Below are positions 3,668 to 31,889 of a DNA stretch of 42,290 bases, piece by piece (within the stretch, counting starts at the first letter, position 1; every line of letters starts with the position of its first letter). The stretch covers positions 1 through 42,290 of IMG/VR virus record IMGVR_UViG_3300021387_000086. The stretch is one strand, 5' to 3'. The notes beneath the pieces were generated by a model. The model saw only the letters and a list, made by a program, of their open reading frames with translations. It was not told the DNA's origin and searched no databases. This stretch comes from a virus. Position numbers and translations under genes: made by a program.

Positions 3668-3679
3668 GCGTCTCGGGCG

Positions 3680-4516: not shown

Positions 4517-4538
4517 ACTTATCAATTATTAGACGGTG

Positions 4539-4546: not shown

Positions 4547-4568
4547 CACTTTTTTCGGCATATACGCA

Positions 4569-4609: not shown

Positions 4610-4626
4610 GCTCTAAAACATAAAAT

Positions 4627-4845
4627 TTACCGTTTTCTCCGTCTCCGGATGGCACGTTGGCGGTAGTTCTTACCCCAGCGGTGGGACTTGCTGGTCACGT
4701 GGAAGTAATGGCAGTAATGGCATCGATAGACCGAACCCTTACTTCGTTCGTGATGCCGGCGAGCCAATGCCCGCACCACACGTTCCGCCTCCCCATACCG
4801 GGAGAACTGCACCTTGCCACACCTCGGACAATAACCAACGACCAT
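4627..4845 (-). CDS. Small basic zinc-ribbon protein
   Basis: CPRCG...CHYCH four-Cys pattern, C-terminus RQRAIRRRRKR. Confidence 0.6.
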   Translation of the reverse strand: MVVGYCPRCGKVQFSRYGEAERVVRALARRHHERSKGSVYRCHYCHYFHVTSKSHRWGKNYRQRAIRRRRKR

Positions 4846-4862
4846 AATGCCCTCTCATTCCT

Positions 4863-5348: not shown

Positions 5349-5437
5349 AAATATACGATTATTAAGATTTTTTTGCGTCCGGCAAGACAAACCTCGAGAT
5401 ATCGTCTGCCTAAAGTTTACTATTATTAAGATTTACC

Positions 5438-6043
5438 CTATAAGAACGGTACAAATTTACGTGCAACAATGATATACGGTGCGGTCGCCGGGAACTTCTC
5501 CATCACCCAGCAGGCTACCTTAGCCAGCAGCAGTATCGCCGTGATCCAGAACCACCAGCTGCAGAACCGGTCATAGCCGGTGCGCGACTTCTCCACCACC
5601 TTCCGGTACTCGGACTGCAGGGTGTTGTACCGGTCGGCTATGCTGTCGGCGGAGTGCTTGTAGTCGGAAGCCAGCGCACGGTAGTAGTTCGTGCTGTCCC
5701 GTTGCTCATGGTGCGTGTCGGACTGCTGCACACCGGCTACGTTGGTCGCCTCGCCGGTCTTGCTGTTGTAGGTGCCGCCGCCCTGGGCGAACTGGATGAA
5801 CAGGCCGGAACTGTCGCGGACGGTGACGTGGTGCTCGATGATGTTCACGCTGTCCCGGATGTGCCACCGGATGCTGTCCTGCCAACGGATAGCCACCGAG
5901 TCGCGGATGTTGACATTCTCTGTCAGACTGCCGGGCGTCTTGCAGCTCGGGAAGAGCAGACACAGGGCAAGGGTGATGGCGAAAGCGGCTACCATGATCC
6001 AGAAGCCCCAGAAGCAACCGGTCGCGTCACGGTAGAGTCTCAT
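5438..6043 (-). CDS. Unimolecular-spanin-like protein (N-terminal lipobox plus C-terminal TM helix)
   Basis: LLFPSC lipobox at the N-terminus, FCSWWFWITAILLLAKVACWVM near the C-terminus, adjacent to the endolysin. Confidence 0.5.
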   Translation of the reverse strand: MRLYRDATGCFWGFWIMVAAFAITLALCLLFPSCKTPGSLTENVNIRDSVAIRWQDSIRWHIRDSVNIIEHHVTVRDSSGLFIQFAQGGGTYNSKTGEATNVAGVQQSDTHHEQRDSTNYYRALASDYKHSADSIADRYNTLQSEYRKVVEKSRTGYDRFCSWWFWITAILLLAKVACWVMEKFPATAPYIIVARKFVPFL

Positions 6044-6264
6044 ACCTCACCTCCTTCCTGCTCGGGTTCGGGTTGGGGATGCTCGCGGGCCAATTCTTGT
6101 TCATAGGCTACTTTGTCGGCGTCGGTGCATTGCAACCATGGCTCGGCATGAGGCGGCAGACCTACTTCATGTCGGAACATACGCGGTTCGTCTGCTTGGT
6201 CTTTGTACAGCCAGTCGAATCCCTCGTCCGGCGTTTGTACTCGTGTTGTAAATTCAGTTATCAT
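6040..6264 (-). CDS. Acidic hypothetical protein (74 aa)
   Basis: ATG at 6264 (track start 6288 is TTG); ATGA overlap with the downstream gene. Confidence 0.5.
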   Translation of the reverse strand: MITEFTTRVQTPDEGFDWLYKDQADEPRMFRHEVGLPPHAEPWLQCTDADKVAYEQELAREHPQPEPEQEGGEV

Positions 6265-6269
6265 AATCG

Positions 6270-7730
6270 TTATTTTGTTACAGTCCAATGTTTAATGTTG
6301 GTCAGATAGGCATAGATGGTCATGGTGCCCTCATCGAAAACGAACAGATGGCTTTCGTCTTTAATGGCATCATACACGGCTTGGGAGATGGTGAGGGTTG
6401 GTCCGTTGGAGTCGAAGGTAGCAAGGCGCAAAGCGATGTAGGTGCGGAAGTTCGAGAGGAACTGCTCAAGGTTGGAATCATCCAAGGTCGGAGACCACGA
6501 ACTCAATGGAAGACTACAATCTGTACCTTCTCCAAACTCAAAATGGATAAGGTTCACATTCGGTTGCAACGTGAAATATCCGGCAAGACTATGAATCGTT
6601 CCGAACTGAATTTTACGAAGGTTCACATAATTGGAACTTCCAAGGCTCGGAGAATATCCTACAATCCTCTCGCAGTCCGGCAATATCAACTCCTCTAAAG
6701 CCGGATAAGAACCGCTGATACATCCTCCGTTGTTAGCCTCAATAGCCGATAGACCATAAGCAACAAACCTCCGAAGATTAGCACTACCACCTGAAAGGAA
6801 TGAATTATAGCCCGTAGTCTCATAAGTAGAACCTTGTTCAAATACTACCGTCAATTCTTCTTGATCAGTATTGAACATCGAACAATACTCTAATGCTCCA
6901 TAGAAATGCACATGTTTCTTGAATACCAAGCGACGGAGTGCAGGAGAATAGATGCGGTGAATGTACCATGTCTCAAGGTTATCAAACACCATCTCCTCTA
7001 CGTTGCCTGTTATATTGATAACGTTACCTCCACCACGACTCCAACCAAGTGTCTTGACCTGTGGCATATGAAAGTGCGTAATGTTTGGTCCCCCATTGAT
7101 AACGACCACTTGCGCCGTTTGGCATCCAATCGTAATGCTCGTGAGGTTTGGCATCAGGGCTAATATACGAGATATAGTATCAGCAGCCAACTCTCCCCAT
7201 ACATTGTCATCTTCAAGTGTTGTTATTTGCAAAGACCTATCGCTAATTACACGAATGAGAGAAGAACCATCCGCGGCATCGGGGACACCGGAAATCTTGC
7301 GATCTGAGAGGAGAAGTGGAGCGGAGGGGAGGTCGGTGATGGACGAAAGGCGCGAAGGGATGCCGTAGGTCTCCGAACCCTGTAAGCGGGTGATGTAGTG
7401 GGACCACATGTCGGACAGCGAGCGGAGTGAGGCATCGTCCGACAGGGAGCGGAGAGTGCCTGTGCTGAAGGGGAACTGCCACAGCGCACGGAGCAGCAGC
7501 AGCAGGTTCGACTTCATCTGGGCGATGAACGACGCAAAGGTGTACGGTTTGTGCTGGGCAATGACCTCGGAATAGCCGTCATATCCGGCTTGGTGCAGGG
7601 CTTGCTGTTTCAACGGGTCAAGTGCTTCGTTCACCAGCGAACCGAAGTGCGGGTCTTGCGGCAGCGCAGACACCTCCGCTAATACGTCCTCGCCTCTGCA
7701 GGTCTCGATATTTTTCTTAATTTCACTCAT
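6270..7730 (-). CDS. Tail fibre / receptor-binding protein with leucine-rich-repeat-like C-terminal half
   Basis: 486 aa. Recurrent LRR-like segments: NLTSITIG, NITHFHMP, NVINITGN, LRRLVFKK, LRRFVAYG, LEELILPD, LRKIQFGT. Confidence 0.55.
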   Translation of the reverse strand: MSEIKKNIETCRGEDVLAEVSALPQDPHFGSLVNEALDPLKQQALHQAGYDGYSEVIAQHKPYTFASFIAQMKSNLLLLLRALWQFPFSTGTLRSLSDDASLRSLSDMWSHYITRLQGSETYGIPSRLSSITDLPSAPLLLSDRKISGVPDAADGSSLIRVISDRSLQITTLEDDNVWGELAADTISRILALMPNLTSITIGCQTAQVVVINGGPNITHFHMPQVKTLGWSRGGGNVINITGNVEEMVFDNLETWYIHRIYSPALRRLVFKKHVHFYGALEYCSMFNTDQEELTVVFEQGSTYETTGYNSFLSGGSANLRRFVAYGLSAIEANNGGCISGSYPALEELILPDCERIVGYSPSLGSSNYVNLRKIQFGTIHSLAGYFTLQPNVNLIHFEFGEGTDCSLPLSSWSPTLDDSNLEQFLSNFRTYIALRLATFDSNGPTLTISQAVYDAIKDESHLFVFDEGTMTIYAYLTNIKHWTVTK

Positions 7731-7790
7731 ATCATTTCAAGTTTTGAGAGCTACGGCAGAGCCAACTGCCATAGCCCGGGTTCGTGGGCC

Positions 7791-8348
7791 TTATCCCAGC
7801 ACATTGTCATCGGGGTTGTTTCCACCGCCATTCGAGCCGCCGTTGCCGCCTTGGTTCTCTTTGCGACGAATCAGCGGTTTGACGTGCGTCTCGTTGAGTT
7901 TCTTGCCCTCCAACTCATCCGCCAAAGCCTCGTTGCCACCGTCCTCGGTCTCGAAATAGAGACGAGCCTTGATGTCCTTCGGATTGACGAACTGCTTGGC
8001 GTTATCCTCGGTCAGTTCGGTGATGGTCGGGTCGATGGCCTGCACGTCCGCCAGACTGATATTCCTGTCGAGTTTCAAGTCCATGTAGATGGTGCAGAAG
8101 CGTTTGCCCTTGAAGCCGAACAGCGGTACGCGGATGCCTTGTGCGGCAAGGTGGATGAGCGTTTCGCCAAACAGTTCGACCGCATCTTGGCAGACCTTTT
8201 CGGGCATCAGACCGTTCATCAGGTGCATGTGCTTCGTGATGTCTTTGATGGATGCCGTACCGCGTGGAGACTCCTCGACGCTGATGGACGGACCCGAACC
8301 GAGCACTTCGTTGCCTTGATTGACGTTAATGTTATATAATGCTTCCAT
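7791..8348 (-). CDS. Hypothetical virion-associated protein with Gly/Asn-rich C-terminus
   Basis: 185 aa; ends NQGGNGGSNGGGNNPDDNVLG. Confidence 0.5.
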   Translation of the reverse strand: MEALYNINVNQGNEVLGSGPSISVEESPRGTASIKDITKHMHLMNGLMPEKVCQDAVELFGETLIHLAAQGIRVPLFGFKGKRFCTIYMDLKLDRNISLADVQAIDPTITELTEDNAKQFVNPKDIKARLYFETEDGGNEALADELEGKKLNETHVKPLIRRKENQGGNGGSNGGGNNPDDNVLG

Positions 8349-8394
8349 ATATTCACCCTGTGCGGCGGGATTTGTTGTTAGTCCGCACCCGTTT

Positions 8395-8465
8395 TTATAG
8401 TGTCGTTGGTTGCGTCGTTATAGTGACGCTTGGGTTGTTGTTATAGTGACGCCGACTTGGTGCCG
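8395..8465. repeat. Three tandem ~23-bp repeats (TTATAGTGWCGY...)
   Basis: Units at 8395-8417, 8418-8440 and 8441-8465, read directly; intergenic. Confidence 0.85.
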
Positions 8466-8477
8466 TTGGTAGAACGG

Positions 8478-9416
8478 TTAGGGGGTGGGTTCGCCTTCCA
8501 TCGTGAACGCTCCGCTTGATGCTGCGTTGGGATAGAAGATGCCTGTCACAAGGTCAATCATTCCAAGCGTGTCTTTTGCCTGCGCCACACCCGTTGATAC
8601 TTTGTCTGCGCTCCAAGCCTTACCAAGTCGGAAAGGCAAAAATGCTCTTACGAGATTACCAGACGATATAATGTTATATTTCCCATATCCGTATTTAGAA
8701 ATGAACAAATACCCTCCTGCGTCTCTTTGATACCATGCGTAAATGGCAAAATTAGTTTCGCGCGGTTCTCCGACACTTCCGCTATATGTTCCTTCCTTCA
8801 CTATGGTATCATCGGCTAATAACTTAAATCTTCCACCAGATGCCTCAAATGTGGATTCTCTGTCAAGTATATTGCTCCATGATACACCGAAGTTTTTATT
8901 CGCGTTCGATCCAAGGTTCGCGTATAATGTACTTCCTTGAAGATGGAGTCCAAAATATCCATTACCGGAACCATATCGACGTCCAAACATAAGATGCCAT
9001 CCGCTTGGTTCAGGAACAACCTTATGGACAATAAACTCTACTTTTATATTATCGTCGGGTAATGTTATATTAGCATTTAAGTAAGCCGTTCCATCTCCAA
9101 CCAGCCACCTCACCGGCATCGTCACTCCTTGCGGCTCCAGTCCGAGGCTGCATACCATCATCGGGTCTTCGTTGATGAACCCAGCCAGCGCGGTAGCCTT
9201 GGCCTTATCGCTCGCAGCGATGCCGTTCAGGTATTTATTCGTTGCCTGTATCACCGCCGGACCATCCACACCAAACGCCGCCATAATGGCTTGCGTGGCC
9301 CAAGGCTTCAGCCAACGGGACGTGCCGAGCATGTCGAGACTACCGAGCGATGCAGCGGTGATGCGGTATCGGCCGAAGCCTGCCGCCGTGAGATATTGTG
9401 CGCCCTTGCCGATCAT
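8478..9416 (-). CDS. Putative tail fibre / receptor-binding protein
   Basis: 312 aa. Beta-rich lectin-like C-terminal region GWHLMFGRRYGSGNGYFGLHLQGSTLYANLGSNANKNF. Sits in the tail-fibre block. Confidence 0.5.
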   Translation of the reverse strand: MIGKGAQYLTAAGFGRYRITAASLGSLDMLGTSRWLKPWATQAIMAAFGVDGPAVIQATNKYLNGIAASDKAKATALAGFINEDPMMVCSLGLEPQGVTMPVRWLVGDGTAYLNANITLPDDNIKVEFIVHKVVPEPSGWHLMFGRRYGSGNGYFGLHLQGSTLYANLGSNANKNFGVSWSNILDRESTFEASGGRFKLLADDTIVKEGTYSGSVGEPRETNFAIYAWYQRDAGGYLFISKYGYGKYNIISSGNLVRAFLPFRLGKAWSADKVSTGVAQAKDTLGMIDLVTGIFYPNAASSGAFTMEGEPTP

Positions 9417-9730
9417 ACCGTCACCTCCTCGCCTCCGATATACATGATGCTGTCATACACCGTGTGGCTGATGCTGCCCTGCCCGTCCTGCCAGTCTTGC
9501 GTCACAAGCCGCTCATGCTCGGTCTCACCCGTTCCCGGCTGCCGTGCAAACGCATTGACGATGCCCTCCACGTTGTCCTGCGTGCCGACATTGCGGATGG
9601 TGAATGTGTCCGCAATCTGCTGTGCCTGCTGTACCGGCTCAAGGATTTTGAGGTTGATGTACTCTATCAGCCACGTCGCCTTGACCTTGAACAAAAAGTT
9701 GTCAAATAGTTTTCTTACTGAATCTGTCAT
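9413..9730 (-). CDS. Hypothetical protein (105 aa)
   Basis: ATGA coupling to the downstream gene. Confidence 0.55.
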   Translation of the reverse strand: MTDSVRKLFDNFLFKVKATWLIEYINLKILEPVQQAQQIADTFTIRNVGTQDNVEGIVNAFARQPGTGETEHERLVTQDWQDGQGSISHTVYDSIMYIGGEEVTV

Positions 9731-9749
9731 ATCTCTTTGATTTTAATTG

Positions 9750-10322
9750 TTACTCCCCTGCGCCGCCTTCGGAACCGCTACCCGAACCGCTGCCGGAACC
9801 ACTGCCACTGCCGCTGCCGGAACCGCCGTGTATGATGGCTCTCGTGTCCGCCGTGATCGTGGCTGCTTGCTGTGGGGTGATATAGCCCATGTTCACGGCC
9901 ACATACTCCAGATAGTCGTACACATCGTCCTCGTCCATGAGGCCTACGGGTTCGACCACCTCCTCACCGCCATCCTCTGTCACCACCTTGACCGTCTCGC
10001 CATCCGAAACCAGGCCGAAGAAGGACTTGATGTCCGTTGCTGCATCCGACTCGACGGTATCGACGTAGATCTTGATGAGCAACTTATCACCCACCGCAAC
10101 AGGCGGAAGGTTGACGAACTGGAGCGTGTAGTTCCTGGTTCCATCCTCCAACGGCAAGGATTGAAACATCGTCATACTCATAAACTTGAGCGGCGTATAG
10201 ACAGCCTTGCCGGTTGTCTTATTGAGCACGCCAAGTATATTGTCCTTGGTCAGACCGGCGTCGTAATTGAAGTACGCCCGGTTGGCTTGTGTAGCCTCTA
10301 CATGTAGGATGATATCTCTCAT
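9750..10322 (-). CDS. Virion protein with C-terminal G(GS)9-EGGAGE tail
   Basis: 190 aa; tail encoded at 9753..9827 with mixed Ser codons (tcc, agc, agt, tcg). Confidence 0.65.
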   Translation of the reverse strand: MRDIILHVEATQANRAYFNYDAGLTKDNILGVLNKTTGKAVYTPLKFMSMTMFQSLPLEDGTRNYTLQFVNLPPVAVGDKLLIKIYVDTVESDAATDIKSFFGLVSDGETVKVVTEDGGEEVVEPVGLMDEDDVYDYLEYVAVNMGYITPQQAATITADTRAIIHGGSGSGSGSGSGSGSGSGSEGGAGE

Positions 10323-11865: not shown

Positions 11866-11925
11866 AACCGCCAATTCTTAAAAATGTACTATCTTTAAGA
11901 TTGGGCAGTGATTCAGAATCGGGTG

Positions 11926-11933
11926 CAAAGGTA
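11926..11933 (-). promoter_or_regulatory. Bacteroides-type -7 promoter box (TACCTTTG)
   Basis: Minus strand TGTCAAAAAAAAGTCGTACCTTTGCACCC. Confidence 0.6.
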
Positions 11934-12022
11934 CGACTTTTTTTTGACATATGCAAGTTTCGCCCGCATTTTTCCTATAGGAAGGAGAAAAAATTCTAGA
12001 AAGCCGGCTTCGCGAAAAATCT

Positions 12023-12154
12023 TGTTTCTTTGGGTTTAACTTACTTATTTATAGATACTTAGATAGAAACATTTAATGAAACAATATCGAAACATTGTGA
12101 AACACTTTGCACGCTAAAGAAACAAAATGAAACAAAATCGGTGCAAAATGTTTC
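12023..12154. repeat. GAAACA iteron array (six direct copies at 10-12 bp phasing, flanked by inverted TGTTTC copies)
   Basis: Direct copies at 12066, 12078, 12089, 12099, 12119 and 12129; inverted copies at 12023 and 12149. Confidence 0.8.
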
Positions 12155-12355
12155 GCGCTAAGTTGCTGATTTGTCGCATTTTAGAGCAGTTTGCCTACTT
12201 TGGAAACGAATTTTTCAAAAATCGGCGAGTTTTTAACCTCCTCCTACTTCTTATAATGGGGATAGGGCGTTAAAAAAAACGCCACCAAAAAGTGACGTTC
12301 CTTAATATTCGGCTCCGGCTTGCCGCCGTCGCCGGGAAAATTACCATCGGTCGGA

Positions 12356-12583
12356 TCACTGCGCTGCTGGTGACGGGTCAACCGGATGCAACTCCAGCTT
12401 CAGAGAGTAATGCTCATCGGAAACAGTGTCGAAGGTAGTAGTCAGACGCATCCTGCCACCTGCCTCCTCGACGAAGGTAAACTCCACCGGCTTGTGGTTC
12501 GGAGCTACGGACAGCGACAGAGTACGCAAGATCTTCCGAACACCGAGGTTCGAGAGATTGTCGGGGATAATGGCTTGTATCAT
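12356..12583 (-). CDS. Hypothetical protein (75 aa)
   Basis: Compact ORF 13 nt downstream of the preceding small gene. Confidence 0.5.
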   Translation of the reverse strand: MIQAIIPDNLSNLGVRKILRTLSLSVAPNHKPVEFTFVEEAGGRMRLTTTFDTVSDEHYSLKLELHPVDPSPAAQ

Positions 12584-12595
12584 AGCTGCACCCTC

Positions 12596-12799
12596 CTAAC
12601 ACATGAAGTTAATACAAAGGATCTTCCCGCCGATCATGGCCGTCATGGATGAATACGACTCATCCTGAACGAGTTGGGCTTTGACTGTCTCTCCTTCTGC
12701 CTTCAGACCGTTGGCAATCCGGAAGAGATGTTTCTTGATTTCATCGACATTGATGTTTTTCTCGATACGAAGGTTCGAGTTGTTTTCGCCTTGTAACAT
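12596..12799 (-). CDS. Hypothetical protein (67 aa)
   Basis: ATG 12799, preceded by the conserved leader motif. Confidence 0.5.
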   Translation of the reverse strand: MLQGENNSNLRIEKNINVDEIKKHLFRIANGLKAEGETVKAQLVQDESYSSMTAMIGGKILCINFMC

Positions 12800-12801
12800 A
12801 G

Positions 12802-12862
12802 CTTTTTAGTATTTAGACAAAATAAATATCGGTCACGACCCGCTGTCTAAGCTACTAAAAAG
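12802..12862 (-). promoter_or_regulatory. Extended imperfect hairpin sequestering the translation-initiation leader of gene 12596..12799
   Basis: TTAGACA (12813-12819) pairs with TGTCTAA (12845-12851), AGTA with TACT, and CTTTTT with AAAAAG. Confidence 0.45.
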
Positions 12863-12934
12863 AAGAGCTCGAGCGACCATTACAGTCAACTCACGGGTGT
12901 AACCGATACTACAATTCTGGTTAGACTGAGCATT

Positions 12935-12956
12935 AAAAAAAACCGCTCACTTGCGG
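12935..12956 (-). terminator. Terminator/attenuator about 50 nt downstream of promoter 12991
   Basis: Minus strand CCGC-aagtga-GCGG followed by T8; the stem is short. Confidence 0.45.
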
Positions 12957-12990
12957 CAGACTTCTCTCAGTCGCCCTTCTTTTATTTAAC

Positions 12991-12998
12991 TTAGACGG
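12991..12998 (-). promoter_or_regulatory. Bacteroides-type -7 promoter box (TATCTTTG)
   Basis: Minus strand TGTCAGAAAAAAGCAGTATCTTTGCACCGTCTAA. Confidence 0.6.
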
Positions 12999-13340
12999 TG
13001 CAAAGATACTGCTTTTTTCTGACATGACCAAATTTTTCGGCAAAAAAATGCGCTAACTCTTTCATTTTTCCGAAAATTAGCCGTTTTTTTGACATTTGTT
13101 TACTCACTTTTCTTCAATTCTTCCATAATTTGGAAAATTGAAAGCCTTGAAAAATCAGGGGGTGACAGGGGGAATTATCGAAAAAATTCCCCTTGTTTGC
13201 CTCAATCGAGCCCCCGCACTGCCTGCGTCTTGGGCGAGGAGCGCGCTTCATTTGGAAGCGGAATATGCAGAGGGGTTCGGGAAAGGAGAGAGTTCGACCG
13301 CGAGAGAGGTTCGCGCTGATGAACGAGATAGTCCACACGC

Positions 13341-13550
13341 GAGGACTATGGAGTTAGCGCGTGAGGTCTATGGGTTAGCACGCAAGAGTTTTTGCTCGAC
13401 ATAGGGGGAGGTTCGGAGGTGCGAGTTATACAATGAGTTATAACCCGAGTTATCGCGAGTTATTGCGTGAGGTCTATGTGTGGGGTCTATGGGTGAGGTC
13501 TATAGGCACATATAGAAAGAGTGCAACCTACAAAGAAAAAGGTGCAACCT
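13341..13550. repeat. Composite iteron region (GAGTTAT x4, GRGGTCTATR x4-5, GTGCAACCT x2)
   Basis: GAGTTAT at 13423, 13435, 13447 and 13457. GAGGTCTATG-type copies at 13363, 13469, 13482 and 13495. GTGCAACCT at 13521 and 13542. Confidence 0.85.
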
Positions 13551-13605
13551 AATAGGCTACACCTTGCGGGTTTTTGCTCATCTTATAAATGAGACAAGCA
13601 AAGGG

Positions 13606-13920
13606 TTACTCTGCTTCATCGTTCGGGGGTGGGTCGGAGGGGGCGGGGGTTCTGCCATTGCTACCATTGCCGCGTGCCTCCACCGAGAGGTTGCCGAGAG
13701 TTGTCTTGAAATAGTGTGCTTCTTGCAGAACGGGTCTAATCTGTGATACCGTTAGCGGCACGCACAACAGACAACCGTACTGAAATACCGATTGGTCAAT
13801 AATGCCGAGCGGCGGTACTACGAACCCTGCGACGCCCAGACCTATCATAGAGATGGTACTGAGCACGAACACCAGGCTATGCCATGGGAAGTTCTTCCAG
13901 TCGATTACTACCTTTTTCAT
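13606..13920 (-). CDS. Small membrane protein (two TM helices; holin-like candidate)
   Basis: SLVFVLSTISMIGLGVAGFVV and VFQYGCLLCVPLTV hydrophobic segments; Pro/acidic C-tail. Confidence 0.55.
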   Translation of the reverse strand: MKKVVIDWKNFPWHSLVFVLSTISMIGLGVAGFVVPPLGIIDQSVFQYGCLLCVPLTVSQIRPVLQEAHYFKTTLGNLSVEARGNGSNGRTPAPSDPPPNDEAE

Positions 13921-16736: not shown

Positions 16737-16825
16737 CCCCCGGGGGTTAGGGTATGCAAACCCCGGGGATTATGGTATACAAACCCGGGGGGTTAGGGTA
16801 TCAAACCCCTATGGGTTATTATTGG
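16737..16825. repeat. Four tandem ~23-bp repeats, each starting with a CCCCGGGG-type palindrome
   Basis: Units at 16737, 16761, 16784 and 16806: CCCCCGGGGGTTAGGGTATGCAAA / CCCCGGGGATTATGGTATACAAA / CCCGGGGGGTTAGGGTATCAAA / CCCCTATGGGTTATTATTGG. Confidence 0.9.
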
Positions 16826-17490
16826 TTGTCCACGCCTACGATATAAAGGATGTTCTTGCCTTGTGGAGCGAGTAGGCGGTTCATCGCTCCGAGGGTCGAG
16901 CCGGTGGTGACGAAATCGTCAAAGCAGATCAGGTTCGCTTCATCCGGAATGTCTCCGGGCTCGAAGTCCACGCCGATGCGCTGCTTGGTGCGGGCGATCG
17001 CCACATCCGGACGGTAGGGAACTCCCAGCCTGCGCGCCATCTCCTCGGCGACCATACAGGCGAAGTTACGTTCCTTGTGCCGGCGGCGCGGGGTGGTGAT
17101 CACTGCCCAATCGCCTTGCCGGAGGTGTGTGCCGAGTACCGACTGCAGTGTCGGAACGAGTGCATTCACGAAGATGGGAATCATGGCATCGTCGGCTTTG
17201 ATCTCCGCGAGGGTCGGACCCTTGACGGTACGCTTCCAGATAGCTATGATCCGAAGCCCGACCTTGGGGAAGAGGTGCACATGTTCCTCGGAGAGGTCAC
17301 ACCGGGCGATATCCGCATGTTCGGCATGCCACGCCTTCCGGGGACCACCTTCGGCAAACAGGTCTTTGAGAGCCTGGTTACCGTCTCCTATGGAATCAAG
17401 AATGTCGGAGAATCCTGTCGGCCGAATGGTTACGGACTCCAGAACCTCCGACATCGACGGTAACTGAGCTATGTCAGGGTCGAGTAACAT
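16819..17490 (-). CDS. Type-I phosphoribosyltransferase-fold protein (ComF-like)
   Basis: PRPP-binding motif NLICFDDFVTTGSTLGA. An upstream PRRRHKERNFACMVA resembles the ComF RGFNQ region. ATG 17490 overlaps the TGA of the preceding gene (TGATG). Confidence 0.65.
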   Translation of the reverse strand: MLLDPDIAQLPSMSEVLESVTIRPTGFSDILDSIGDGNQALKDLFAEGGPRKAWHAEHADIARCDLSEEHVHLFPKVGLRIIAIWKRTVKGPTLAEIKADDAMIPIFVNALVPTLQSVLGTHLRQGDWAVITTPRRRHKERNFACMVAEEMARRLGVPYRPDVAIARTKQRIGVDFEPGDIPDEANLICFDDFVTTGSTLGAMNRLLAPQGKNILYIVGVDNQ

Positions 17491-18119
17491 CACTCGCCGC
17501 TGCCGCTGCCACTACCACTACCCTGCTCGTTGATGGTGCCGTCCTCGGTCTCGATCTCACCCTCATAGAAGGGAGCCGGAATCAGGTCGGTATGCTCGAC
17601 GTTGATGGTGGTCGTAGCCTTGCCGGTAGCACCTTGGCCATTGTCCTGTGCAACCGTGGCATTGCCCTGCCATTTGTCGTTACCGATCATACGGAACTTG
17701 CCATCCATATCCTGAACGAGAACGACCACGTCGTTGTTGTTCAGATAAGCAGCAGCCATCGTTGCTGCAGCATCCACTGCCGGGTGAACGGCGGTGAGCT
17801 TGTTGAGTTGCGTCTGGCTCGGCTTCTCGCCTTGGGCCTCGGAGGTCAACGAAGAATCGTTAACGAGGACATCGATGTGGTGGAACACCTTATCGGCTGC
17901 CATCTCGAACGAACCCTCCAGAACTGCGGAGGTCGGACGACCGAACTCATCTACCGGCAGCGTCGGCCACTTGGTGATGTTCGACTTAGCCGTGTAGTAC
18001 AGGCGGCGACGAATACCGGGGAGGACAGGCTTGCCCTCGCACCAACTCAATGAACCCTCAAGGGGTGAACAATTCGCTTTAGGCATATTCGTAATTGTTA
18101 ATGGTTTGACAATTGGCAC
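17490..18119 (-). CDS. Virion structural protein with C-terminal (GS)4-GE tail
   Basis: Immediately downstream of the capsid gene. The track start 18119 is GTG; an ATG at 18086 with an A/T-rich leader is an alternative start. The tail is encoded at 17493..17522. Confidence 0.65.
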   Translation of the reverse strand: MPIVKPLTITNMPKANCSPLEGSLSWCEGKPVLPGIRRRLYYTAKSNITKWPTLPVDEFGRPTSAVLEGSFEMAADKVFHHIDVLVNDSSLTSEAQGEKPSQTQLNKLTAVHPAVDAAATMAAAYLNNNDVVVLVQDMDGKFRMIGNDKWQGNATVAQDNGQGATGKATTTINVEHTDLIPAPFYEGEIETEDGTINEQGSGSGSGSGE

Positions 18120-18153: not shown

Positions 18154-19176
18154 TTACTCACCGCTTCCGCTTCCGGAACCCGAGCCGCTGCCCGAACCCG
18201 AACCTTCAGCACCGTAGAGCTTAGCTACGAGCAGACGGCGAGGATCGATGGACTCGAACTCTACACCGAAGAACATCGTAGCGACATACTCCAAGGTGAA
18301 TGCACTGAAGTGCTCGATGATCACGCTCTCGGTATCGGACATGAGGTCCACACCAATCAGCATGTTCTCCTTGGTGGTCAGGTGGATGTACGGAGAATCC
18401 TCCTTGCTCGACAGAGCTACGATCTCGCAGCGGCCGTTCGAGCCCTCGAGGATGTGCTGCTCGAAGCCCTTAACCCACGGCGTTGCGTTGTGGGTAGCGA
18501 AGTACGCATCTTCGTAAGCGTCCAGGATGTCCTGCGTTACGAACATGATCGTCTTCTGGCGACGGAGCTCGCGGTTAGCACTACGGTAGAGTTTCTTGAG
18601 AACATCTACCGCGTTGGTCTCGTCGATAGCCTCCTCCAGCTCGACATAGTTGCCTTTGCCGGCTGCGATAGTACCGGCGGTGATCTCCTTCGTCGTGATG
18701 GTGTCCCAACCGTTGAAGAGGTCAGCCGTGGTGGTACCGTTAGCCTTGCGGACTGCAGACCACAGAACAGCGTTGAGGTTCTCGCTCAACTTCTTGCAGA
18801 TCTCGACGAGGACAGCCTTCACGATCTCTGCGTTCTTCATCGCCTCACCCTTGGTCGCAGCCTTCTGACCGATGACCATGGTAGCGACGGAGTTCGGCTC
18901 GAACTCATAGTCAACTGCACCCATGAAGGTCTCCAGCTCGCGGAAGCTGAGTTCAGCGTCTTTACCGGCTTTGATGTCGTGCTTGTACGGACGGAACTGC
19001 GCATCGAGCGACAACGAACCTACCGTCTCCTTGTAGCGAATGCCGTAGCGAACGCTAACGTAGGGCATGATCTCCTCCAAACCGGTTACAGGCAATGCAA
19101 GAAATTCCTTGCGCCACTTGGTAGCAGCCTCTTGATACGCTTGAAGCTGCTCTCCAGTAATTTTACCTACAGGCAT
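18154..19176 (-). CDS. Major capsid protein with C-terminal (GS)7-GE tail
   Basis: 340 aa, directly after the protease/scaffold gene. The sequence resembles major capsid proteins of Bacteroidales prophages (from memory). The tail is encoded at 18157..18204. Confidence 0.8.
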   Translation of the reverse strand: MPVGKITGEQLQAYQEAATKWRKEFLALPVTGLEEIMPYVSVRYGIRYKETVGSLSLDAQFRPYKHDIKAGKDAELSFRELETFMGAVDYEFEPNSVATMVIGQKAATKGEAMKNAEIVKAVLVEICKKLSENLNAVLWSAVRKANGTTTADLFNGWDTITTKEITAGTIAAGKGNYVELEEAIDETNAVDVLKKLYRSANRELRRQKTIMFVTQDILDAYEDAYFATHNATPWVKGFEQHILEGSNGRCEIVALSSKEDSPYIHLTTKENMLIGVDLMSDTESVIIEHFSAFTLEYVATMFFGVEFESIDPRRLLVAKLYGAEGSGSGSGSGSGSGSGE

Positions 19177-19207: not shown

Positions 19208-20323
19208 TTACTTCAGCATTTCGCGAGCCTTGGCGAGAGTCTCAGCCAATGCCTCTGCCGGAGATTTTTCCTCGGCGTCTTGGTGTTGGCCACCCGCTTC
19301 TACTACTTGCTGTGCCTTTGCAGCCGGACGTGCCTCCAACTCCGCAATGCGGGCTTCAGCGGCTGCCAACTTCGTCTCGGCATCTGCCTTGGCGGTCTCA
19401 GCAGCGGTCTTTGCCGCTTCTGCAGCCTCTTTGTCTGCCTTAGCCTGAGCCAAAGCGTCCTCGAGAGCCTGAACCTGAGCTTCGTCCAAAGCATAACTGC
19501 CGCCCTCTTTCGGCTCCTCCAGAGCCTTGAGGTTCGCAGCAGCCAATACAGCTGCTACCATCAGAAATACTTTTTTCATAACAGTTGTTTGAGTTGAGCT
19601 ATCAGGGTTGGCATCCGGTTCTGCCACTGCCTGGGCGGTAGTAGCCTCCTTCTTGCCGAACCATTTCTTGAACATCGCTTCCAGCTGCGCGAGCCAACCG
19701 TCCGCCTCGACCGGCATGTTATCCGGAAGAGGAATACCGGCAGCGGCCATTGCGTTTGCAACCGTCTGCGTGAGTTTCACATCCTCGGTACTGTCGATGA
19801 CCTCATCCACGAAGCCCCAATCCAATGCCTCCTGTGCGGTCAGCCATTTCTCCTCACGCATCAGGTCGAGAAGATCCTTCACCGGTTTCTTGCACCGGTC
19901 AGCATACGCGGTGGCGATGGTCAGATCAATCTTCTCCGCATCGGCAGCGGTCTTCATGTACTCCGCTGCTTTCTCCTTCAGCTGGTCGGCATTGAGAGCA
20001 GACCACTCGAAGATAGGGAACGAGCACTTGTGCACGAGGTACATCGCGTTCTTCTCGATGGCGATGTGCTTGGCTCCCATCGATGCGATAGTAGCGGCAC
20101 TCGCGTTCATGCCTCGATAATAGACATGCACGTTACCATGGTTAGCAAATGCAGAGGAAACAGACAGGGCGGTAGCGACAGAGCCACCGAGCGAGTCAAT
20201 GAGTACCGACACTTCTTTGTCGGCTGCTTTATCCAGAACATAGTCAACATAGTCGGAATCGAAGTCCCAACTGCCGACATAGCCTTTAAGTTTCAAATCG
20301 AATTTCTTTGCCATAGCGCACAT
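19208..20323 (-). CDS. Prohead serine protease (ClpP/S14-S49-like) fused to a coiled-coil scaffold domain
   Basis: DSLGGSVATAL and GMNASAATIASMG...LVHK match the ClpP-type pattern. Ala/Glu/Lys-rich C-terminus AEAAKTAAETAKADAETKLAAAEARIAELEA. Start is ATG 20323 or 20314, since the track start 20500 lies upstream of the promoter. Confidence 0.8.
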   Translation of the reverse strand: MCAMAKKFDLKLKGYVGSWDFDSDYVDYVLDKAADKEVSVLIDSLGGSVATALSVSSAFANHGNVHVYYRGMNASAATIASMGAKHIAIEKNAMYLVHKCSFPIFEWSALNADQLKEKAAEYMKTAADAEKIDLTIATAYADRCKKPVKDLLDLMREEKWLTAQEALDWGFVDEVIDSTEDVKLTQTVANAMAAAGIPLPDNMPVEADGWLAQLEAMFKKWFGKKEATTAQAVAEPDANPDSSTQTTVMKKVFLMVAAVLAAANLKALEEPKEGGSYALDEAQVQALEDALAQAKADKEAAEAAKTAAETAKADAETKLAAAEARIAELEARPAAKAQQVVEAGGQHQDAEEKSPAEALAETLAKAREMLK

Positions 20324-20338
20324 TTTTAATTCCGGCTG

Positions 20339-20346
20339 CAAAGGTA
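20339..20346 (-). promoter_or_regulatory. Bacteroides-type -7 promoter box (TACCTTTG) for the head operon
   Basis: Minus strand GGTGTTGTACCTTTGCAGCC, 16 nt upstream of ATG 20323. Confidence 0.6.
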
Positions 20347-20418
20347 CAACACCGGTCGCGCGACTGGCAAGTTCAATATAAACAGGAAAAACGCACGTCT
20401 CGCGTGCGTACGTAGAAC

Positions 20419-20490
20419 CGGAAAGAAACGGAAAGAAACGGAAAGATTTTTCTTTTTTCCGGAAAGAATTCGGAAAGAAACGGAAAAGAA
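20419..20490. repeat. Six copies of CGGAAAG(AAA) upstream of the head-operon promoter
   Basis: Copies at 20419, 20429, 20439, 20460, 20471 and 20481. Confidence 0.85.
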
Positions 20491-20522
20491 AAGGGGACAA
20501 ACTACCTTCCGTAGCTGTCCCC
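20481..20522 (-). terminator. Intrinsic terminator ending the early/replication operon
   Basis: Minus strand GGGGACA-N16-TGTCCCC followed by TTTTCTTTTCC. Confidence 0.7.
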
Positions 20523-20577: not shown

Positions 20578-21351
20578 TTATTCACCCGGCCACTCAAAGC
20601 GTGAGCGTTCCGGGAATAACTCTTTGAGATATTCCTCCACTCCGGAATGGATGGCAGAGTCGTATATCGAGAAGGCGATATCATTCTGGAGCAAGGCAAA
20701 ATCCTCGTCGGTATTGAGGTGCTGGAGTTTGATATCCTTGCGACAGAAGGTATTAATGTCGAGATAATGACGGCGGTAGATCAATGCCGCGATGGGCGAG
20801 TTGCACGACAGACCGTAACGGCTGTTGAACATCGAATCCTCGAAGTCTGCAACATACGGCCAGTTGTGCAGTTCATCCCATGCTTCACGGGTGTAGAGCT
20901 TGTTGATGTGCCCTTCCCAGTACCGAAGATCGAGAGCAAACTTCTCCATGAACGCCCGGGTGTCCGCCATCGTCTTCGTGTACCGCTTATCGCCTACGCC
21001 CTTGGTAGTATCTTTGGGCATCTCCTTCCCCTTATAGAACAGTGGCCACTTCTCCAAGTCCACCGGACGAATCAGGAAATGGTCATCGGAGGAGAGAAGG
21101 AACCTCTCTACCTTAGACATCTTAAACAGCCGGCACAACTTGTAATAGACATTCAGCGCCGGTTTGTTCGTCGTGATATCTCTCACATGGAGATACCGCA
21201 CGGTCGATGGGTTAATGAACGGTGGCAACTCATCGCCAACTATATACACCTCACCGAGGTTTGCGCCGAACTTAGCTATCGAGCGCAGGGAATAGCGCAG
21301 CTCATTATTATCCCACTTCGAGCCTGTACCTATTATATATACTACATCCAT
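20578..21351 (-). CDS. Stealth-like (CR1/CR2) sugar-1-phosphate transferase
   Basis: MDVVYIIGTG resembles Stealth CR1 (D-V-V-Y-T-W-V). NELRYSLRSIAKFGANLGEVYIVGDELPPFINPSTVRYLHVRDI parallels the CR2 core ELRYSLRS...IVT.GQ.P.WL...V..V.H.DI. SSDDHFLIRPV resembles NDD.F..RP. Confidence 0.6.
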   Translation of the reverse strand: MDVVYIIGTGSKWDNNELRYSLRSIAKFGANLGEVYIVGDELPPFINPSTVRYLHVRDITTNKPALNVYYKLCRLFKMSKVERFLLSSDDHFLIRPVDLEKWPLFYKGKEMPKDTTKGVGDKRYTKTMADTRAFMEKFALDLRYWEGHINKLYTREAWDELHNWPYVADFEDSMFNSRYGLSCNSPIAALIYRRHYLDINTFCRKDIKLQHLNTDEDFALLQNDIAFSIYDSAIHSGVEEYLKELFPERSRFEWPGE

Positions 21352-21353: not shown

Positions 21354-23960
21354 TCAGAACGGAACTTCAGTTTGTGAATCCTCTTGTTTGGTAGCCGGCG
21401 ACTGTGCTGCAGCTGAGTCGGGTTTCGCGCGGCGTTTCTTCATCTCCTCCAGATCTGACGGAGTGACAAAGTACTCGGCGGAGAAGATAAACGGACGACA
21501 TTGCTTGGACTCATGCGACCAATAAACGCTTCCTATATCTGCCTTCGAACCGTTGGCTTTGTCGGTTTCGGTAATGCGCATGGCAAAGCGTACGCGGTGG
21601 CTGTCCGGTGACTTGGTCACGCCCGGCATGTCGGAAAGCAGATTCCGGATGTACTGCTGATCCTTGCGGGCTGCGTCCGGAACATACTTCTGAATATACT
21701 CGGTGTCGAACTCCAGCTTCATTGCGCCGGTATCGCGGAACATCTCGCCAAGGAACTCGATGAGCGAGCCCTCGAAGTTGGATGCAGTACCCGCCATCAT
21801 GGTCGCAAGGTCGTCGTTCATGATACGCTTGGGGTCGAACCACATACGGCTGCTACCCTCTCGTTCCTGAACGAACATCTGCTTAGAGTTGAACCGCTTC
21901 TGCAGGAAGTACAGGAATGCTGGCACTTCCTCCTCTATATACTCCGAATACTTCTTTGTTGGGTCGTCTCCCTCGAGCAGTCCGTTATCACTCGCCCAGG
22001 GCGACAGTCTCATCACCCAGAAGCGGATCTCGTCCTTGGCAATGAAAACAGCCTTGCGGACCTCGTTAGAACAGAGGACAAACTTGAGGAACGACGGAAC
22101 CTCCTGCTTATCCTTACCCTTGCGCTCGACGAGGATGGTCTGTGTGGTGGAGAGGTACTTGAGCTTCTCACCAACGGCTTTATTCTCACCCAGGCAGGAC
22201 TCGTCGATGCCGACGATGAGTTTGCCGGCAAGCATAGAGTTGAAGTTCGTATCGAGCAGGTTGTTATCGCCGATGACGGTATTGTTACCGAAGATCGCCT
22301 TGAGCAGGTTGAGGAAGGAGGTCTTACCGGTGGCACGGTCACGACTGACGAGCATGATAATCGGCAGGAACTCCCTCGGGTAGAAGTACGCGACGGTGAT
22401 CCAGTCCAGCAGCATCTCGTAGTAATGGAACTTATCTTCCGGGTACTCCTTGGTGATCTGGCGCAGCAGCTTCTCGATGTGCGGCCATTTACCTTGCACC
22501 GGCTTCGAGGGCAGCGGGCTGTAGATGTTATAGAAACGGTAGTTCTGCGAGTTGATTATCTCGCGGCTGTAGTTGACATGATCCGGCTCGACGGTCGTCG
22601 ATATGAAGTGCTTGTACTTGTACAGCTTCTCCGATGTGCCTTTGCCGTATTGCGCATTGATGACCTTATCGGCGATGGTGTAGAAGTCCTGCACCGTGCC
22701 CGATTTGGCTCCGGGGATGGGCTTCTCCGTCACCAGCACTATCTCCGAACCGATGGCGACATAGTCCTTGAGCGATTGGTCCAGCAGCTGCACCAGTTTC
22801 TTCTCGCTCTCGAGGTAGCGGTAGGTAGCACCCTTGTAACGGAACTCGTGTCCTTTGATCTGCGGCTCCCATGCCTTGTAGAAATCCTCCGGCGACTGCA
22901 GGTTGAAGATTGCCCGGATGTTACCATCGTTGCAGGTACGCAGGTTCTTCTTGACGAAGTAGATACCTGTGCGGCCCGGATGATTGAGGTCATCGGCAAT
23001 GGCGGTGATCTCGTCCTTGAACTTATCTTCGACGATGAGGTCATCCAGTCCCTTGGGGCTATTGTTGACGGTGTACGGCTCGCCGGTACGCTCGTCGATC
23101 AGTTCCTCATCCTCGAACATCTTATTGACATACGCAAAGAAGATCTCGCAGGGGTTGCCCTGTGCGTTCTTGAACTCCAGCAGCAAGTCCTTCAGATTGA
23201 GCAAGGAGTGCATGAAGGCTTGCGGACGCTTGGAGAGGTCCGGCGTCTCACGCCATGTCTCCTTGCTGCCTGTCTTCCACGGGTTAGTGCAGTCACCGTC
23301 GTACAGGATGATGATGTTATCCGGCTTGACGGCGTTGAGGAAACGAACGATATCCGGATAGAGCTGCTTGGTCTTACCGTCCTTGTAGAGCGTGACCGAA
23401 CCGAGACCGATGACCGCCATGCCGTGAACGGAAGCCACCATCGCCTTCATGTAGCCCTCGGTGAGGATCACGGTCTCGATGTGCTCGCCCTTCAGATACT
23501 TGCGGTACAGTTCCGGCGGGAAGAAAGGATACGTGCCCTTCTTGGTCTCGCCGCCGGGGTACTTGTACTTGCCGGCATCCTTATCTGACTTCTTCGCCTC
23601 CTCCCAGTTCTTTGGCGACAGACGGGTGATGTAGTACAGATCCTCCACTTCTCCGTCGCTGTACTTGGGCTGCTTATCCCGGGTATAGGAGATGAGTCTG
23701 CCTTCGAGGGTATAGGGGTACATCCGAATGTTGTCATCCTGATCAGACTGGAAGAGTGGCCACTGCGGTACCAGTGTCCCCTCTCCGTTATCGGCCATAT
23801 AGACACGACCCATACCGATGGACTCGTCAAAGTCCTCCGGGTTGTGCCATTCGGCTACTTTCTTATGCCACTTCAGGGGTAGTGAGACCTGCTCACGGGT
23901 CAGACCACACAGGTCAAAGACGCGCTCCTGGAGATAGCTCTTTGTCTTCTCCTCTGCCAT
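21354..23960 (-). CDS. Toprim primase fused to an SF3 (P4/D5-type) replicative helicase
   Basis: 868 aa. ILTEGYMKAM (Toprim Glu), IIILYDGD (DxD), SRDRATGKTSFLNLL (Walker A), LIVGIDES (Walker B). Confidence 0.85.
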   Translation of the reverse strand: MAEEKTKSYLQERVFDLCGLTREQVSLPLKWHKKVAEWHNPEDFDESIGMGRVYMADNGEGTLVPQWPLFQSDQDDNIRMYPYTLEGRLISYTRDKQPKYSDGEVEDLYYITRLSPKNWEEAKKSDKDAGKYKYPGGETKKGTYPFFPPELYRKYLKGEHIETVILTEGYMKAMVASVHGMAVIGLGSVTLYKDGKTKQLYPDIVRFLNAVKPDNIIILYDGDCTNPWKTGSKETWRETPDLSKRPQAFMHSLLNLKDLLLEFKNAQGNPCEIFFAYVNKMFEDEELIDERTGEPYTVNNSPKGLDDLIVEDKFKDEITAIADDLNHPGRTGIYFVKKNLRTCNDGNIRAIFNLQSPEDFYKAWEPQIKGHEFRYKGATYRYLESEKKLVQLLDQSLKDYVAIGSEIVLVTEKPIPGAKSGTVQDFYTIADKVINAQYGKGTSEKLYKYKHFISTTVEPDHVNYSREIINSQNYRFYNIYSPLPSKPVQGKWPHIEKLLRQITKEYPEDKFHYYEMLLDWITVAYFYPREFLPIIMLVSRDRATGKTSFLNLLKAIFGNNTVIGDNNLLDTNFNSMLAGKLIVGIDESCLGENKAVGEKLKYLSTTQTILVERKGKDKQEVPSFLKFVLCSNEVRKAVFIAKDEIRFWVMRLSPWASDNGLLEGDDPTKKYSEYIEEEVPAFLYFLQKRFNSKQMFVQEREGSSRMWFDPKRIMNDDLATMMAGTASNFEGSLIEFLGEMFRDTGAMKLEFDTEYIQKYVPDAARKDQQYIRNLLSDMPGVTKSPDSHRVRFAMRITETDKANGSKADIGSVYWSHESKQCRPFIFSAEYFVTPSDLEEMKKRRAKPDSAAAQSPATKQEDSQTEVPF

Positions 23961-30614: not shown

Positions 30615-30671
30615 GCCGTGTGCCCGATGGACTTTCTTTCCGGTTCTCGCGAGAATTGGAAAGAAAAAAAA

Positions 30672-31889
30672 ATGTCTAAATCTCACACACAAGAGTTTAC
30701 CCCTTATGTTCCGGCGGTTCTGAGGAAGAACTGCCACGGGTATGTCATTGAGTATTACTTCCTGAACGGCTTGACCGGCGAGCAGGAACGGCGAACCATC
30801 AAGATGAACCGCATCCGGAAGCGGTGCCAGACCGCTGCCGAGTTCAAGCAGTACGCGCAGAGCGTGATCTGTAACCTCAACATCAAACTCGCTAACGGTT
30901 GGAGTCCCATGGGCGAGGTGCAGAACACCCGTGAGTTCGTGCCGCTGCCGCAGATCATCGACCAGTACATGCGGGAGAAAGAGAGTGAGCTGTCCACCAG
31001 TTCACTCCCGGCGTATCGTTCCTTCACCGGTCGTCTGAAGGAATGGATAGAGACGCAGTACCCGCAATGCAACTGTGCGCTGTTTACGAAACTCATGGCG
31101 GTGCAGTTCCTCGACTACCTCTGGAGCGGGAAGAGTGCCCGGTACAACTGCGGCAAGAAGATGAACCAGGCTGACAACCATATCAGCGAGCGAGCGTATA
31201 ACAGTAACCTCAAACTCGGCCGTGCGTTCTTCAGCTGGTGCATCAACAAGTGCTACGCGAAGGAGAATCCCTTCGAGACTATCAAGCCCAAGCGAACGAA
31301 ACAGAAGACCCGCACGCTCATTCCGGAGACGATACGGTTACAGATCGACGGGTACTGGGCAGAACATAACCCTGCGATGCAGCTCATGTGCCGGCTGGTT
31401 TATACGGCGCTGCTGCGTCCGGTGGAGGCGACGAGGGTACAAGTGCACCAGATACGGTACGACCGCGATTGTATCGTCATGCCTTGCGAGCAGACCAAGA
31501 ACGGCAAGGAACGTGTCGGGCGGTTGGATGCCAGTCTGAAGGCATTGCTGCGACAGTACACCGCCGGAGCCGGACCGACGGACTACCTCTTCAGCAACCG
31601 CGAATGGAAGCCCGGCAAGAAGCCCAAGAACAGCCAAATGTTCGCGAAAGAGTGGATGAAGATGCGCAAGGAACTGAAGCTGCCTGCGAAGTACCAACTC
31701 TATTCTCTCCGGGACACCGGCATCAGCGACCTCATGCACGATGGCGTTGCAGATATCGACGTGATGCACGCCGCCGGCCATAGTGACCTGAACATGACAA
31801 CGCGCTATGCAGACCATATCGACGATGACCTGATAGCGCGCATCAATTCCAAGAGCCAGTTCCGGAAGCGTCAGCCGACAATCTCGTAG
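30672..31889 (+). CDS. int: Tyrosine integrase
   Basis: ATG at 30672 after an A-rich leader. ALLRPVEA (Arg), YSLRDTG (Arg), AAGHSDLNMTTRYADH (His and Tyr nucleophile). Confidence 0.9.
   Translation: MSKSHTQEFTPYVPAVLRKNCHGYVIEYYFLNGLTGEQERRTIKMNRIRKRCQTAAEFKQYAQSVICNLNIKLANGWSPMGEVQNTREFVPLPQIIDQYMREKESELSTSSLPAYRSFTGRLKEWIETQYPQCNCALFTKLMAVQFLDYLWSGKSARYNCGKKMNQADNHISERAYNSNLKLGRAFFSWCINKCYAKENPFETIKPKRTKQKTRTLIPETIRLQIDGYWAEHNPAMQLMCRLVYTALLRPVEATRVQVHQIRYDRDCIVMPCEQTKNGKERVGRLDASLKALLRQYTAGAGPTDYLFSNREWKPGKKPKNSQMFAKEWMKMRKELKLPAKYQLYSLRDTGISDLMHDGVADIDVMHAAGHSDLNMTTRYADHIDDDLIARINSKSQFRKRQPTIS

Follow-up and report, generated by a model that had tools for sequence, protein, structure and literature searches.

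A minimal phage Stealth-domain protein co-varies with Gly-Ser capsid tails and may decorate them with sugar-phosphate

Mycobacteriophage-encoded glycosylation of capsid and tail-tube proteins has been described, and a role in antibody shielding was attributed to it (Freeman et al. 2023, as presented in PMC12363180). In Dictyostelium, GlcNAc-1-P is carried by the Ser-rich domain of the cysteine proteinase cprG (Ord et al. 1997, as cited in PMC4920372). The environmental glycofibril TLP-2 has a linear (X-Ser)n dipeptide core, each Ser of which was modelled with a phosphodiester-linked glycan (CryoSeek preprint 10.1101/2025.09.30.679562). Sugar-1-phosphate transferases of the Stealth family include GNPTAB, CpsY and the capsule hexose-1-phosphate polymerases. 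A full-text literature search found no paper linking Stealth proteins with phages. To our knowledge, protein phosphoglycosylation has not been described for bacterial or phage proteins. Here, we examined a Stealth-type gene in a viral genome of 42,290 nucleotides (IMG/VR record IMGVR_UViG_3300021387_000086; this whole stretch is called the window); the closest genomic relatives lie in rumen and gut Bacteroidales MAGs. The joint gain and loss of this gene and of Gly-Ser tails on capsid proteins suggests, on the basis of sequence comparison, that the phage may coat its own shell with sugar-phosphate.

The gene and the recognizable motifs of its product are as follows.

20578..21351, minus strand: mini-Stealth gene, 257 aa, ATG start, encoding a soluble single-domain homolog of hexose-1-phosphate transferases
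Residues 1-7, 16-24, 87-92 and 148 of the product: CR1-like MDVVYII, the CR2 segments NELRYSLRS and SSDDHF, and CR3 His148
Residues 227-231 and 246-253: the C-terminal motifs, CR4-like FSIYD and FPERSRFE

The plus-strand translation of this interval is full of stops, and the ORF lies on the minus strand. An earlier note, made from the sequence alone, had quoted the first three of these peptides from an ORF starting with MDVVYIIGTG, all of them exactly, and had proposed a Stealth-family-like sugar-1-phosphate transferase, to be checked by a Pfam CR1-CR4 search, structure prediction and active-site comparison. The assignment was borne out at the levels of sequence, profile and fold. In the Pfam search, Stealth_CR2 (PF11380) matched the protein significantly (E=4.1e-9; 37.0 bits, which is 2.4 below the curated cut-off of 39.4) and matched all 40 sampled family members, some of which exceeded the cut-off. 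The remaining part of this search gave less: the CR4 match was faint (E=0.064, with similarly faint matches in 9 of the 40 members), and the CR1 HMM did not match the protein, so that CR1 is recognized at motif level only. NCBIfam and PADLOC yielded no match for the window protein. In PHROGs it fell over its full length into phrog_7999, a group annotated as 'unknown function'. When the single window sequence was searched against PDB, Stealth enzymes were the only matches, all of them weak. A profile of the 40 family members likewise retrieved Stealth enzymes only, namely human (6e-18) and zebrafish (2.5e-17) GlcNAc-1-phosphotransferase, fly GNPT (1e-14) and Mycobacterium tuberculosis CpsY (3e-11), with alignments spanning CR2 through the CR3 His. 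Structure prediction was also in agreement: the AF2 model had a pLDDT of 96.3, the top 13 PDB matches in Foldseek (E 3e-10 to 4e-8) consisted entirely of GNPT and CpsY, and GT6/GT-A enzymes ranked below them, as expected for the GT-A-like Stealth fold. The protein contains no hydrophobic segment (maximum hydropathy 0.67).

For the active-site comparison, residue assignments were taken from PMC10668966 and PMC8913297. CR1 is defined by an IDVVYTF-like motif on the central strand (PMC10668966), which corresponds to MDVVYII of the window protein; within the family D2 is invariant and Y5 is at least 90% conserved. The metal motif N322-D323-D324 of CpsY, in which D324 is the Mg-binding residue (PMC10668966, PMC8913297), corresponds to S88-D89-D90; neither Asp varies among 40 sequences, and the fly counterparts are D178-D179. 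H148 is also invariant and aligned with the His of the GNPT CR3 segment 'AHMPHMIDR'. No conserved alignable residue could be found in the family alignment for the essential CR3 Arg (CpsY R419) or for the GlcNAc-contacting Glu (CpsY E305), and downstream of H148, K208 and D206 alone among the polar residues are nearly invariant. The CR4 sequence C(L/I)ND reads S228-I-Y-D231, with S228 invariant, and the conserved C-terminal FPxxSxFE aligned with GNPT and CpsY; thus, CR3 and CR4 are visible only as a conserved His and this C-terminal motif. In sum, the DD of the metal site and the His of CR3 were recovered, both invariant, and the CR3 Arg was not located. Judged from sequence and model, the 257-aa protein is a genuine, minimal and soluble Stealth-domain enzyme that is probably active.

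An exhaustive profile search identified 7,983 clusters (50% identity) with E<=1e-3, of which 1,341 reached E<=1e-30, and nearly all members were 230-260 aa in length. No match to the window protein was found among 50,697 GenBank phage records. With a central family member (P0106) as query, 50 actinophages were recovered (34 of Mycobacterium, 7 of Gordonia, 7 of Microbacterium and 2 of Streptomyces), all of whose homologs were annotated as 'hypothetical protein'; gp6 of Fionnbharth, a mycobacteriophage used in therapy, matched the family HMM with E=4e-34. The mini-Stealth family is thus large (at least 1,341 clusters), unannotated and represented in cultured actinophages. Some members are fused to GT2_4/GT92, Glyco_transf_7C, Glyco_transf_11 or DUF5672 domains, and a GT2-like domain is a recurrent neighbor of mini-Stealth genes; with these fusions and neighboring GTs, the family works together with glycan enzymes. 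A GT2-like domain of ∼180 aa was found directly beside the mini-Stealth gene in L326-L330, L337, L340, L039, L063, L067, L074 and L363 (678-1913), and in L260 its place is taken by a DUF4422 protein (9325-9999). This suggests a recurrent two-enzyme glycan module, which is absent from the window. In L260, the DUF4422 and Stealth genes adjoin a gene (1-9328) for a 6,033-aa product with ART-PolyVal, PBECR5, LPD23 and ddrB-ParB domains; the 505-kb contig also encodes an SU10-type capsid protein and may represent a megaphage or a giant mobile element.

The surroundings of the gene in the window contain the following features.

21354..23960, minus strand: primase/helicase-like protein, 868 aa (DUF5906, weak DUF3854)
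20487..20522, minus strand: GC-rich hairpin 56 nt past the Stealth stop (-21.7 kcal/mol), with TTTTCT after it
20385-20409, downstream of the Stealth gene: second, weaker hairpin with a T-run
20322..20346, minus strand: invariant TACCTTTGCAGCCGGAA element just upstream of the protease ATG (20314)
19208..20314, minus strand: ClpP-like prohead protease with a fused scaffold-like C-terminal part, first gene of the head operon
30618-31889: integrase

Only 2 nt separate the TGA of the primase/helicase-like gene from the ATG of the Stealth gene. Since no space is left for a promoter of its own, the Stealth gene is probably expressed during lytic replication. The hairpin at 20487-20522 is likely an intrinsic terminator that closes the upstream transcription unit. 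In Bacteroidota, the -7 promoter consensus is TAnnTTTG. The TACCTTTGCAGCCGGAA element at 20322-20346 fits this consensus and is likely the promoter of the head operon; the conserved promoter-like element ahead of the head genes reads TACCTTTG. At the matching position in five relatives (L001, L082, L083, L261 and L363), the TACCTTTGCAGCCGGAA element was found again, together with hairpins whose stem sequences differ and whose pairing is kept. Hairpin and element also occur in relatives without the Stealth gene. The description of this gene as the last one of the replication operon, given in the earlier note, is thus correct for transcription in this genome, considering the 2-nt junction, the terminator after the stop and the promoter-like element before the head genes. 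Membership in the head operon was considered as well and was rejected because the terminator and the conserved promoter-like element intervene. Across loci, the position of the Stealth gene is fixed at the 5' edge of the head operon and its upstream neighbor varies (primase, M15 peptidase, or amidase plus GT). The presence of an integrase indicates that the phage is temperate. Elsewhere in this densely coded genome, a region of ∼1.7 kb (11875-13605) has no ORF of at least 90 aa on either strand.

Three window proteins end in (GS)n repeats; they are listed here with a further gene of the head module.

18154..19176, minus strand: HK97-fold major capsid protein, 340 aa, with a disordered tail AE(GS)7GE (repeat 18163-18204); proposed acceptor
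17490..18119, minus strand: 209-aa protein encoded next after the capsid gene, with the C-terminus Q(GS)4GE (repeat 17499-17522); proposed acceptor
9750..10322, minus strand: 190-aa protein ending in G(GS)9EGGAGE (repeat 9771-9824); possible acceptor
16819-17493, minus strand: PRTase-like gene with a weak Pribosyltran match and a weak PADLOC ShosT match (E=0.002)

After the promoter-like element, the head genes follow in the order ClpP-like protease/scaffold (probable start MAKKFDL at 20314), 340-aa, 209-aa and PRTase-like. The (GS)n tails, to which the earlier note had pointed, are real and C-terminal in all three proteins. Sequence profiles gave no annotation for the 340-aa protein, and its identity came from structure prediction: the AF2 model (pLDDT 75) matched HK97-fold capsids (P4/P2, T5-like and GTA; E=7e-12 to 1e-9), and the final 15 residues of the model were disordered. 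The 209-aa and 190-aa proteins matched nothing in PHROGs or Pfam, and their PDB matches were engineered GS linkers only. Codons within the repeats are mixed (TCG, AGC, TCC and AGT for Ser, and likewise several for Gly), a pattern that speaks for selection at the peptide level and against slippage of a microsatellite. In HK97-fold capsids, a C-terminal extension is expected to lie at the surface, as in T7 capsid display. Among the capsid homologs P0121-P0240, from a family of at least 345 homologs, this extension was hypervariable, being absent, (GS)n, long and G/S/T/N-rich (up to ∼70 aa), or acidic/Pro/Ala/Thr-rich; it resembles a fast-evolving surface 'brush', and among its classes (GS)n alone follows the Stealth gene. 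Two further low-complexity tails in the window (7791-8348 and 13606-13920, both minus strand) are Gly/Asn- or Pro-rich rather than GS (...NQGGNGGSNGGGNNPDDNVLG and ...GNGSNGRTPAPSDPPPNDEAE). We also searched viral contigs for (Gly-Ser)6-coding DNA; the matches listed were mostly internal linkers, giant-virus sequences and repeats in non-coding frames, with no Stealth gene, and such matches therefore say little about capsid tails.

To examine the relationship between the gene and the tails, we compared 80 viral loci with a Stealth homolog and 57 with a capsid homolog, together with genome loci and contigs for selected proteins. In a simple NJ tree of the capsid core, built from 38 distinct sequences, contigs with the Stealth gene were also those with a (GS)>=3 capsid tail, L045 being the sole exception; absence of the gene here means absence within 7-10 kb on metagenomic contigs. 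Fitch parsimony required at least four changes for each trait, which fell on shared branches (main clade, L082, L083/84 and L360), four transitions being a small number. A GS-tailed capsid was present in 10 of the 10 Stealth-positive contigs (window, L001, L002, L004, L005, L261, L324, L325, L360 and L363), the 209-aa homologs were GS-tailed in all Stealth-positive relatives checked, and no Stealth-negative contig of the capsid group had (GS)>=3 on its capsid protein. An informative case is L082, whose capsid is 86% identical to that of the window and falls inside the positive clade: its Stealth gene is absent, and its tails read GGEGTGNGG... and TGTGESTGSGE where the window has (GS)n. The Stealth-negative L082 and L083/84 have changed to GT/GE-rich or PAT-rich tails, and L083 has kept the primase and has neither the Stealth gene nor GS tails. 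A 504-aa protein of L082 (3721-5235) contains a run of ∼12 'C..MSFSQ.C' repeats. The exception, L045, is a more distant eleventh Stealth-positive relative with the same capsid family; its Stealth protein is 27% identical, and it has poly-Ser/Ala tails instead of (GS)n on the capsid protein, on the 209-aa homolog and on two other proteins; its proteins ending in poly-Ser are the capsid protein and those of 201, 171 and 422 aa. The region of L045 that separates the head genes from the Stealth gene (6296-8707) encodes a Sulfotransfer_4 protein (E=9e-31), a 257-aa protein and PanD, an aspartate 1-decarboxylase (E=6e-41); it looks like a modification cassette (sulfate, beta-alanine?).

The earlier note had also placed the Stealth protein in a trio with the PRTase and a PLD-like protein. 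Support for such a functional unit was not obtained: PRTase and PLD-like genes persist in Stealth-negative relatives lacking GS tails and are therefore outside the gene-tail link. The PRTase-like gene is kept inside the head module of the nearer capsid relatives (L001-L005 and L082-L087) with or without the Stealth gene, which is an odd site for such an enzyme. As for the target, the note had considered the (GS)n tails, host surface glycans and DNA, and among these the co-variation of gene and tails favors decoration of the (GS)n tails as the putative function.

In the crAss-like phages L257/L007, the Stealth gene is an insertion with a portal-side gene on one side and scaffold/capsid genes on the other, and a 306-aa head-module protein of the Stealth-positive phages has an S/T-rich end (...TSSSTASTASTSGSGGGDA or ...ESSSSSAGGDA). 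Within this group, co-occurrence was mixed: Ser-rich tails were found in both Stealth-positive lineages and also in three Stealth-negative ones, and most Stealth-negative relatives lacked them. Among cluster-K mycobacteriophages, Fionnbharth and Eponine carry the gene and have a capsid C-terminus ...TPDAGSGS; in their close relatives Angelica, Mufasa and Niklas, the gene is absent and the capsid protein lacks the AGSGS ending. L045 and the crAss-like and Fionnbharth-type lineages appear to point the same way as the reading of the tails as target. It should be noted that most of the ∼70 distant Stealth-bearing phage loci had no Ser-rich tails within 10 kb, and that the gene lies mostly in GT/methyltransferase clusters in distant loci of aquatic type and among DNA-metabolism genes in Gaia and OneUp. 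Conversely, a (GS)6-tailed protein (L361), an S/T/G-rich capsid tail (L362) and S-rich tails (L265/L318 and L267) were found in loci whose retrieved range contained no Stealth gene.

From these observations we infer the following route, from catalytic activity and donor sugar to acceptor, Ser linkage and benefit. The mini-Stealth protein would be a soluble, cytoplasmic and metal-dependent nucleotide-sugar:acceptor sugar-1-phosphate transferase free of spacer and targeting modules. The gene would be transcribed together with the upstream replication unit, so that the enzyme would be present while head proteins are made, and sugar-1-phosphate would be moved from a UDP-sugar to Ser hydroxyls in the disordered (GS)n tails of the capsid, 209-aa and 190-aa proteins. 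An anionic sugar-phosphate coat of the virion, that is, protein phosphoglycosylation, would be the outcome, and it may serve shielding, adhesion to mucus or glycans, or capsid stability. That the virion tails are the target, whether or not a primer sugar is involved, appears rather probable, and phosphoglycosylation of serines within disordered virion-protein tails has about an even chance of being correct. The more specific version, in which the minimal enzyme acts alone as one half of an enzyme-plus-tag pair and directly O-phosphoglycosylates the (GS)n serines of the capsid, with the family, therapeutic mycobacteriophages such as Fionnbharth included, carrying out related virion chemistry elsewhere, is tentative and somewhat doubtful.

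Characterized Stealth enzymes phosphoglycosylate sugar hydroxyls and not protein serines (PMC10668966, PMC8913297), which counts against direct transfer to Ser. All of them use sugar acceptors, for example mannose or hexosamine; the sugar-1-phosphate might accordingly be added to a sugar already placed on the tail by another GT of host or phage, or a glycan might be extended. Consistent with this possibility, L363, an otherwise syntenic GS-tailed phage, has a GT2-like gene directly upstream of its Stealth gene, a homologous GT domain adjoins the Stealth gene in many loci, and GT fusions exist. However, tblastn of the window with the L363 GT as query detected no GT homolog, nor did Pfam scans of ∼20 window proteins, and most GS-tailed Stealth-positive relatives likewise lack a nearby GT; we also know of no enzyme in the cytoplasm of a Bacteroidales host that would O-glycosylate GS repeats. 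A sugar primer is thus considered unlikely, and since the window revealed no glycosyltransferase, direct transfer to Ser-OH is favored.

Less likely still is the addition of sugar-phosphate to a capsule, EPS or LPS precursor of the host, for lysogenic conversion or superinfection exclusion, with an indirect or coincidental link to the GS tails. Bacterial Stealth proteins do make capsule and exopolysaccharide phosphodiesters, the phage is temperate (integrase at 30618-31889), aquatic phages carry the gene in GT/methyltransferase clusters, and its place at a module junction, with a terminator after it, is like that of an accessory gene. Nevertheless, this explanation leaves four coincident gains or losses with the capsid tails unaccounted for, and it fits poorly with a gene that has no promoter space of its own and is probably expressed lytically, with a protein that has neither a membrane anchor nor an export partner, and with the location of the gene inside the head module of crAss-like phages. 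Modification of DNA, in which sugar-phosphate on a hydroxylated or hydroxymethylated base would counter restriction, could draw on the position after the primase/helicase gene in the window and on homologs that adjoin genes for DNA methyltransferase, SSB or endonuclease VII (Gaia, OneUp and several metagenomic loci). But no hydroxymethylase or other base-modifying enzyme was detected among the window proteins scanned, the fusion partners of the family are glycan-type GTs (GT11, GT7 and GT92) rather than nucleotide enzymes, Stealth-type enzymes are absent from a recent survey of glycosylated phage DNA, and the coupling to capsid tails would again be unexplained. Modification of DNA is the least probable of these explanations and very unlikely. 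Decoration of the virion tails is the reading that we favor.

If decoration of the virion tails by sugar-phosphate is correct, it would represent a second phage route to virion decoration, through phosphodiester rather than glycosidic bonds. The setting would be Bacteroidales phages of gut and rumen, whose adherence to mucus, recognition by the immune system and stability could be influenced by surface charge and glycans; such decoration would also explain the conspicuous Gly-Ser tails of these capsid proteins. A large 'hypothetical' phage family (PHROG 7999), including Fionnbharth gp6, would gain a testable function, and a compact enzyme of 250 aa with a portable (GS)n tag would be attractive for the display of glyco-phosphate on capsids and other proteins.

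With the known Stealth family, the window protein shares the GT-A-like fold, the N-terminal DVVY strand, CR2 with ELRYSLRS and (N/S)DD, the CR3 His and FPxxSxFE. It differs in its size of ∼250 aa and in lacking the spacer, Notch, DMAP, membrane and polymerase-accessory regions; in addition, its CR4 has S-I-Y-D for 'C(L/I)ND', and no residue could be recognized as the CR3 Arg or as the GlcNAc-binding Glu. Moreover, the window enzyme is phage-borne, and its proposed acceptor is a protein tail and not a glycan. As far as the Dictyostelium system is described in the citing source, the likeness lies in sugar-1-phosphate on Ser within a low-complexity Ser-rich domain, whereas that system belongs to the eukaryotic secretory pathway and involves no virus. 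An acceptor of this Ser-rich, low-complexity kind is present in the (GS)7, (GS)4 and (GS)9 tails, and the capsid tail is disordered in the model. The TLP-2 glycofibril is close to the chemical picture expected of Stealth-modified (GS)n tails, a likeness of chemistry alone. According to the account in PMC12363180, the systems of Che8 (gp110), Corndog (gp38) and Myrna are similar to the one proposed here in that decoration of capsid proteins inside the infected cell is ascribed to a phage transferase. As presented there, the Che8-type enzymes are conventional GTs that form glycosidic bonds and have been demonstrated experimentally, whereas the window system is a putative one, with a proposed phosphodiester linkage, proposed (GS)n acceptors and Bacteroidales hosts. 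In place of a conventional GT of the Che8 gp110/Corndog gp38 type, of which none was found in the window, there is a Stealth-type protein. Thus, compared with virion glycosylation as described in that source, the window system is an analogue, and not a member, of the Che8 type.
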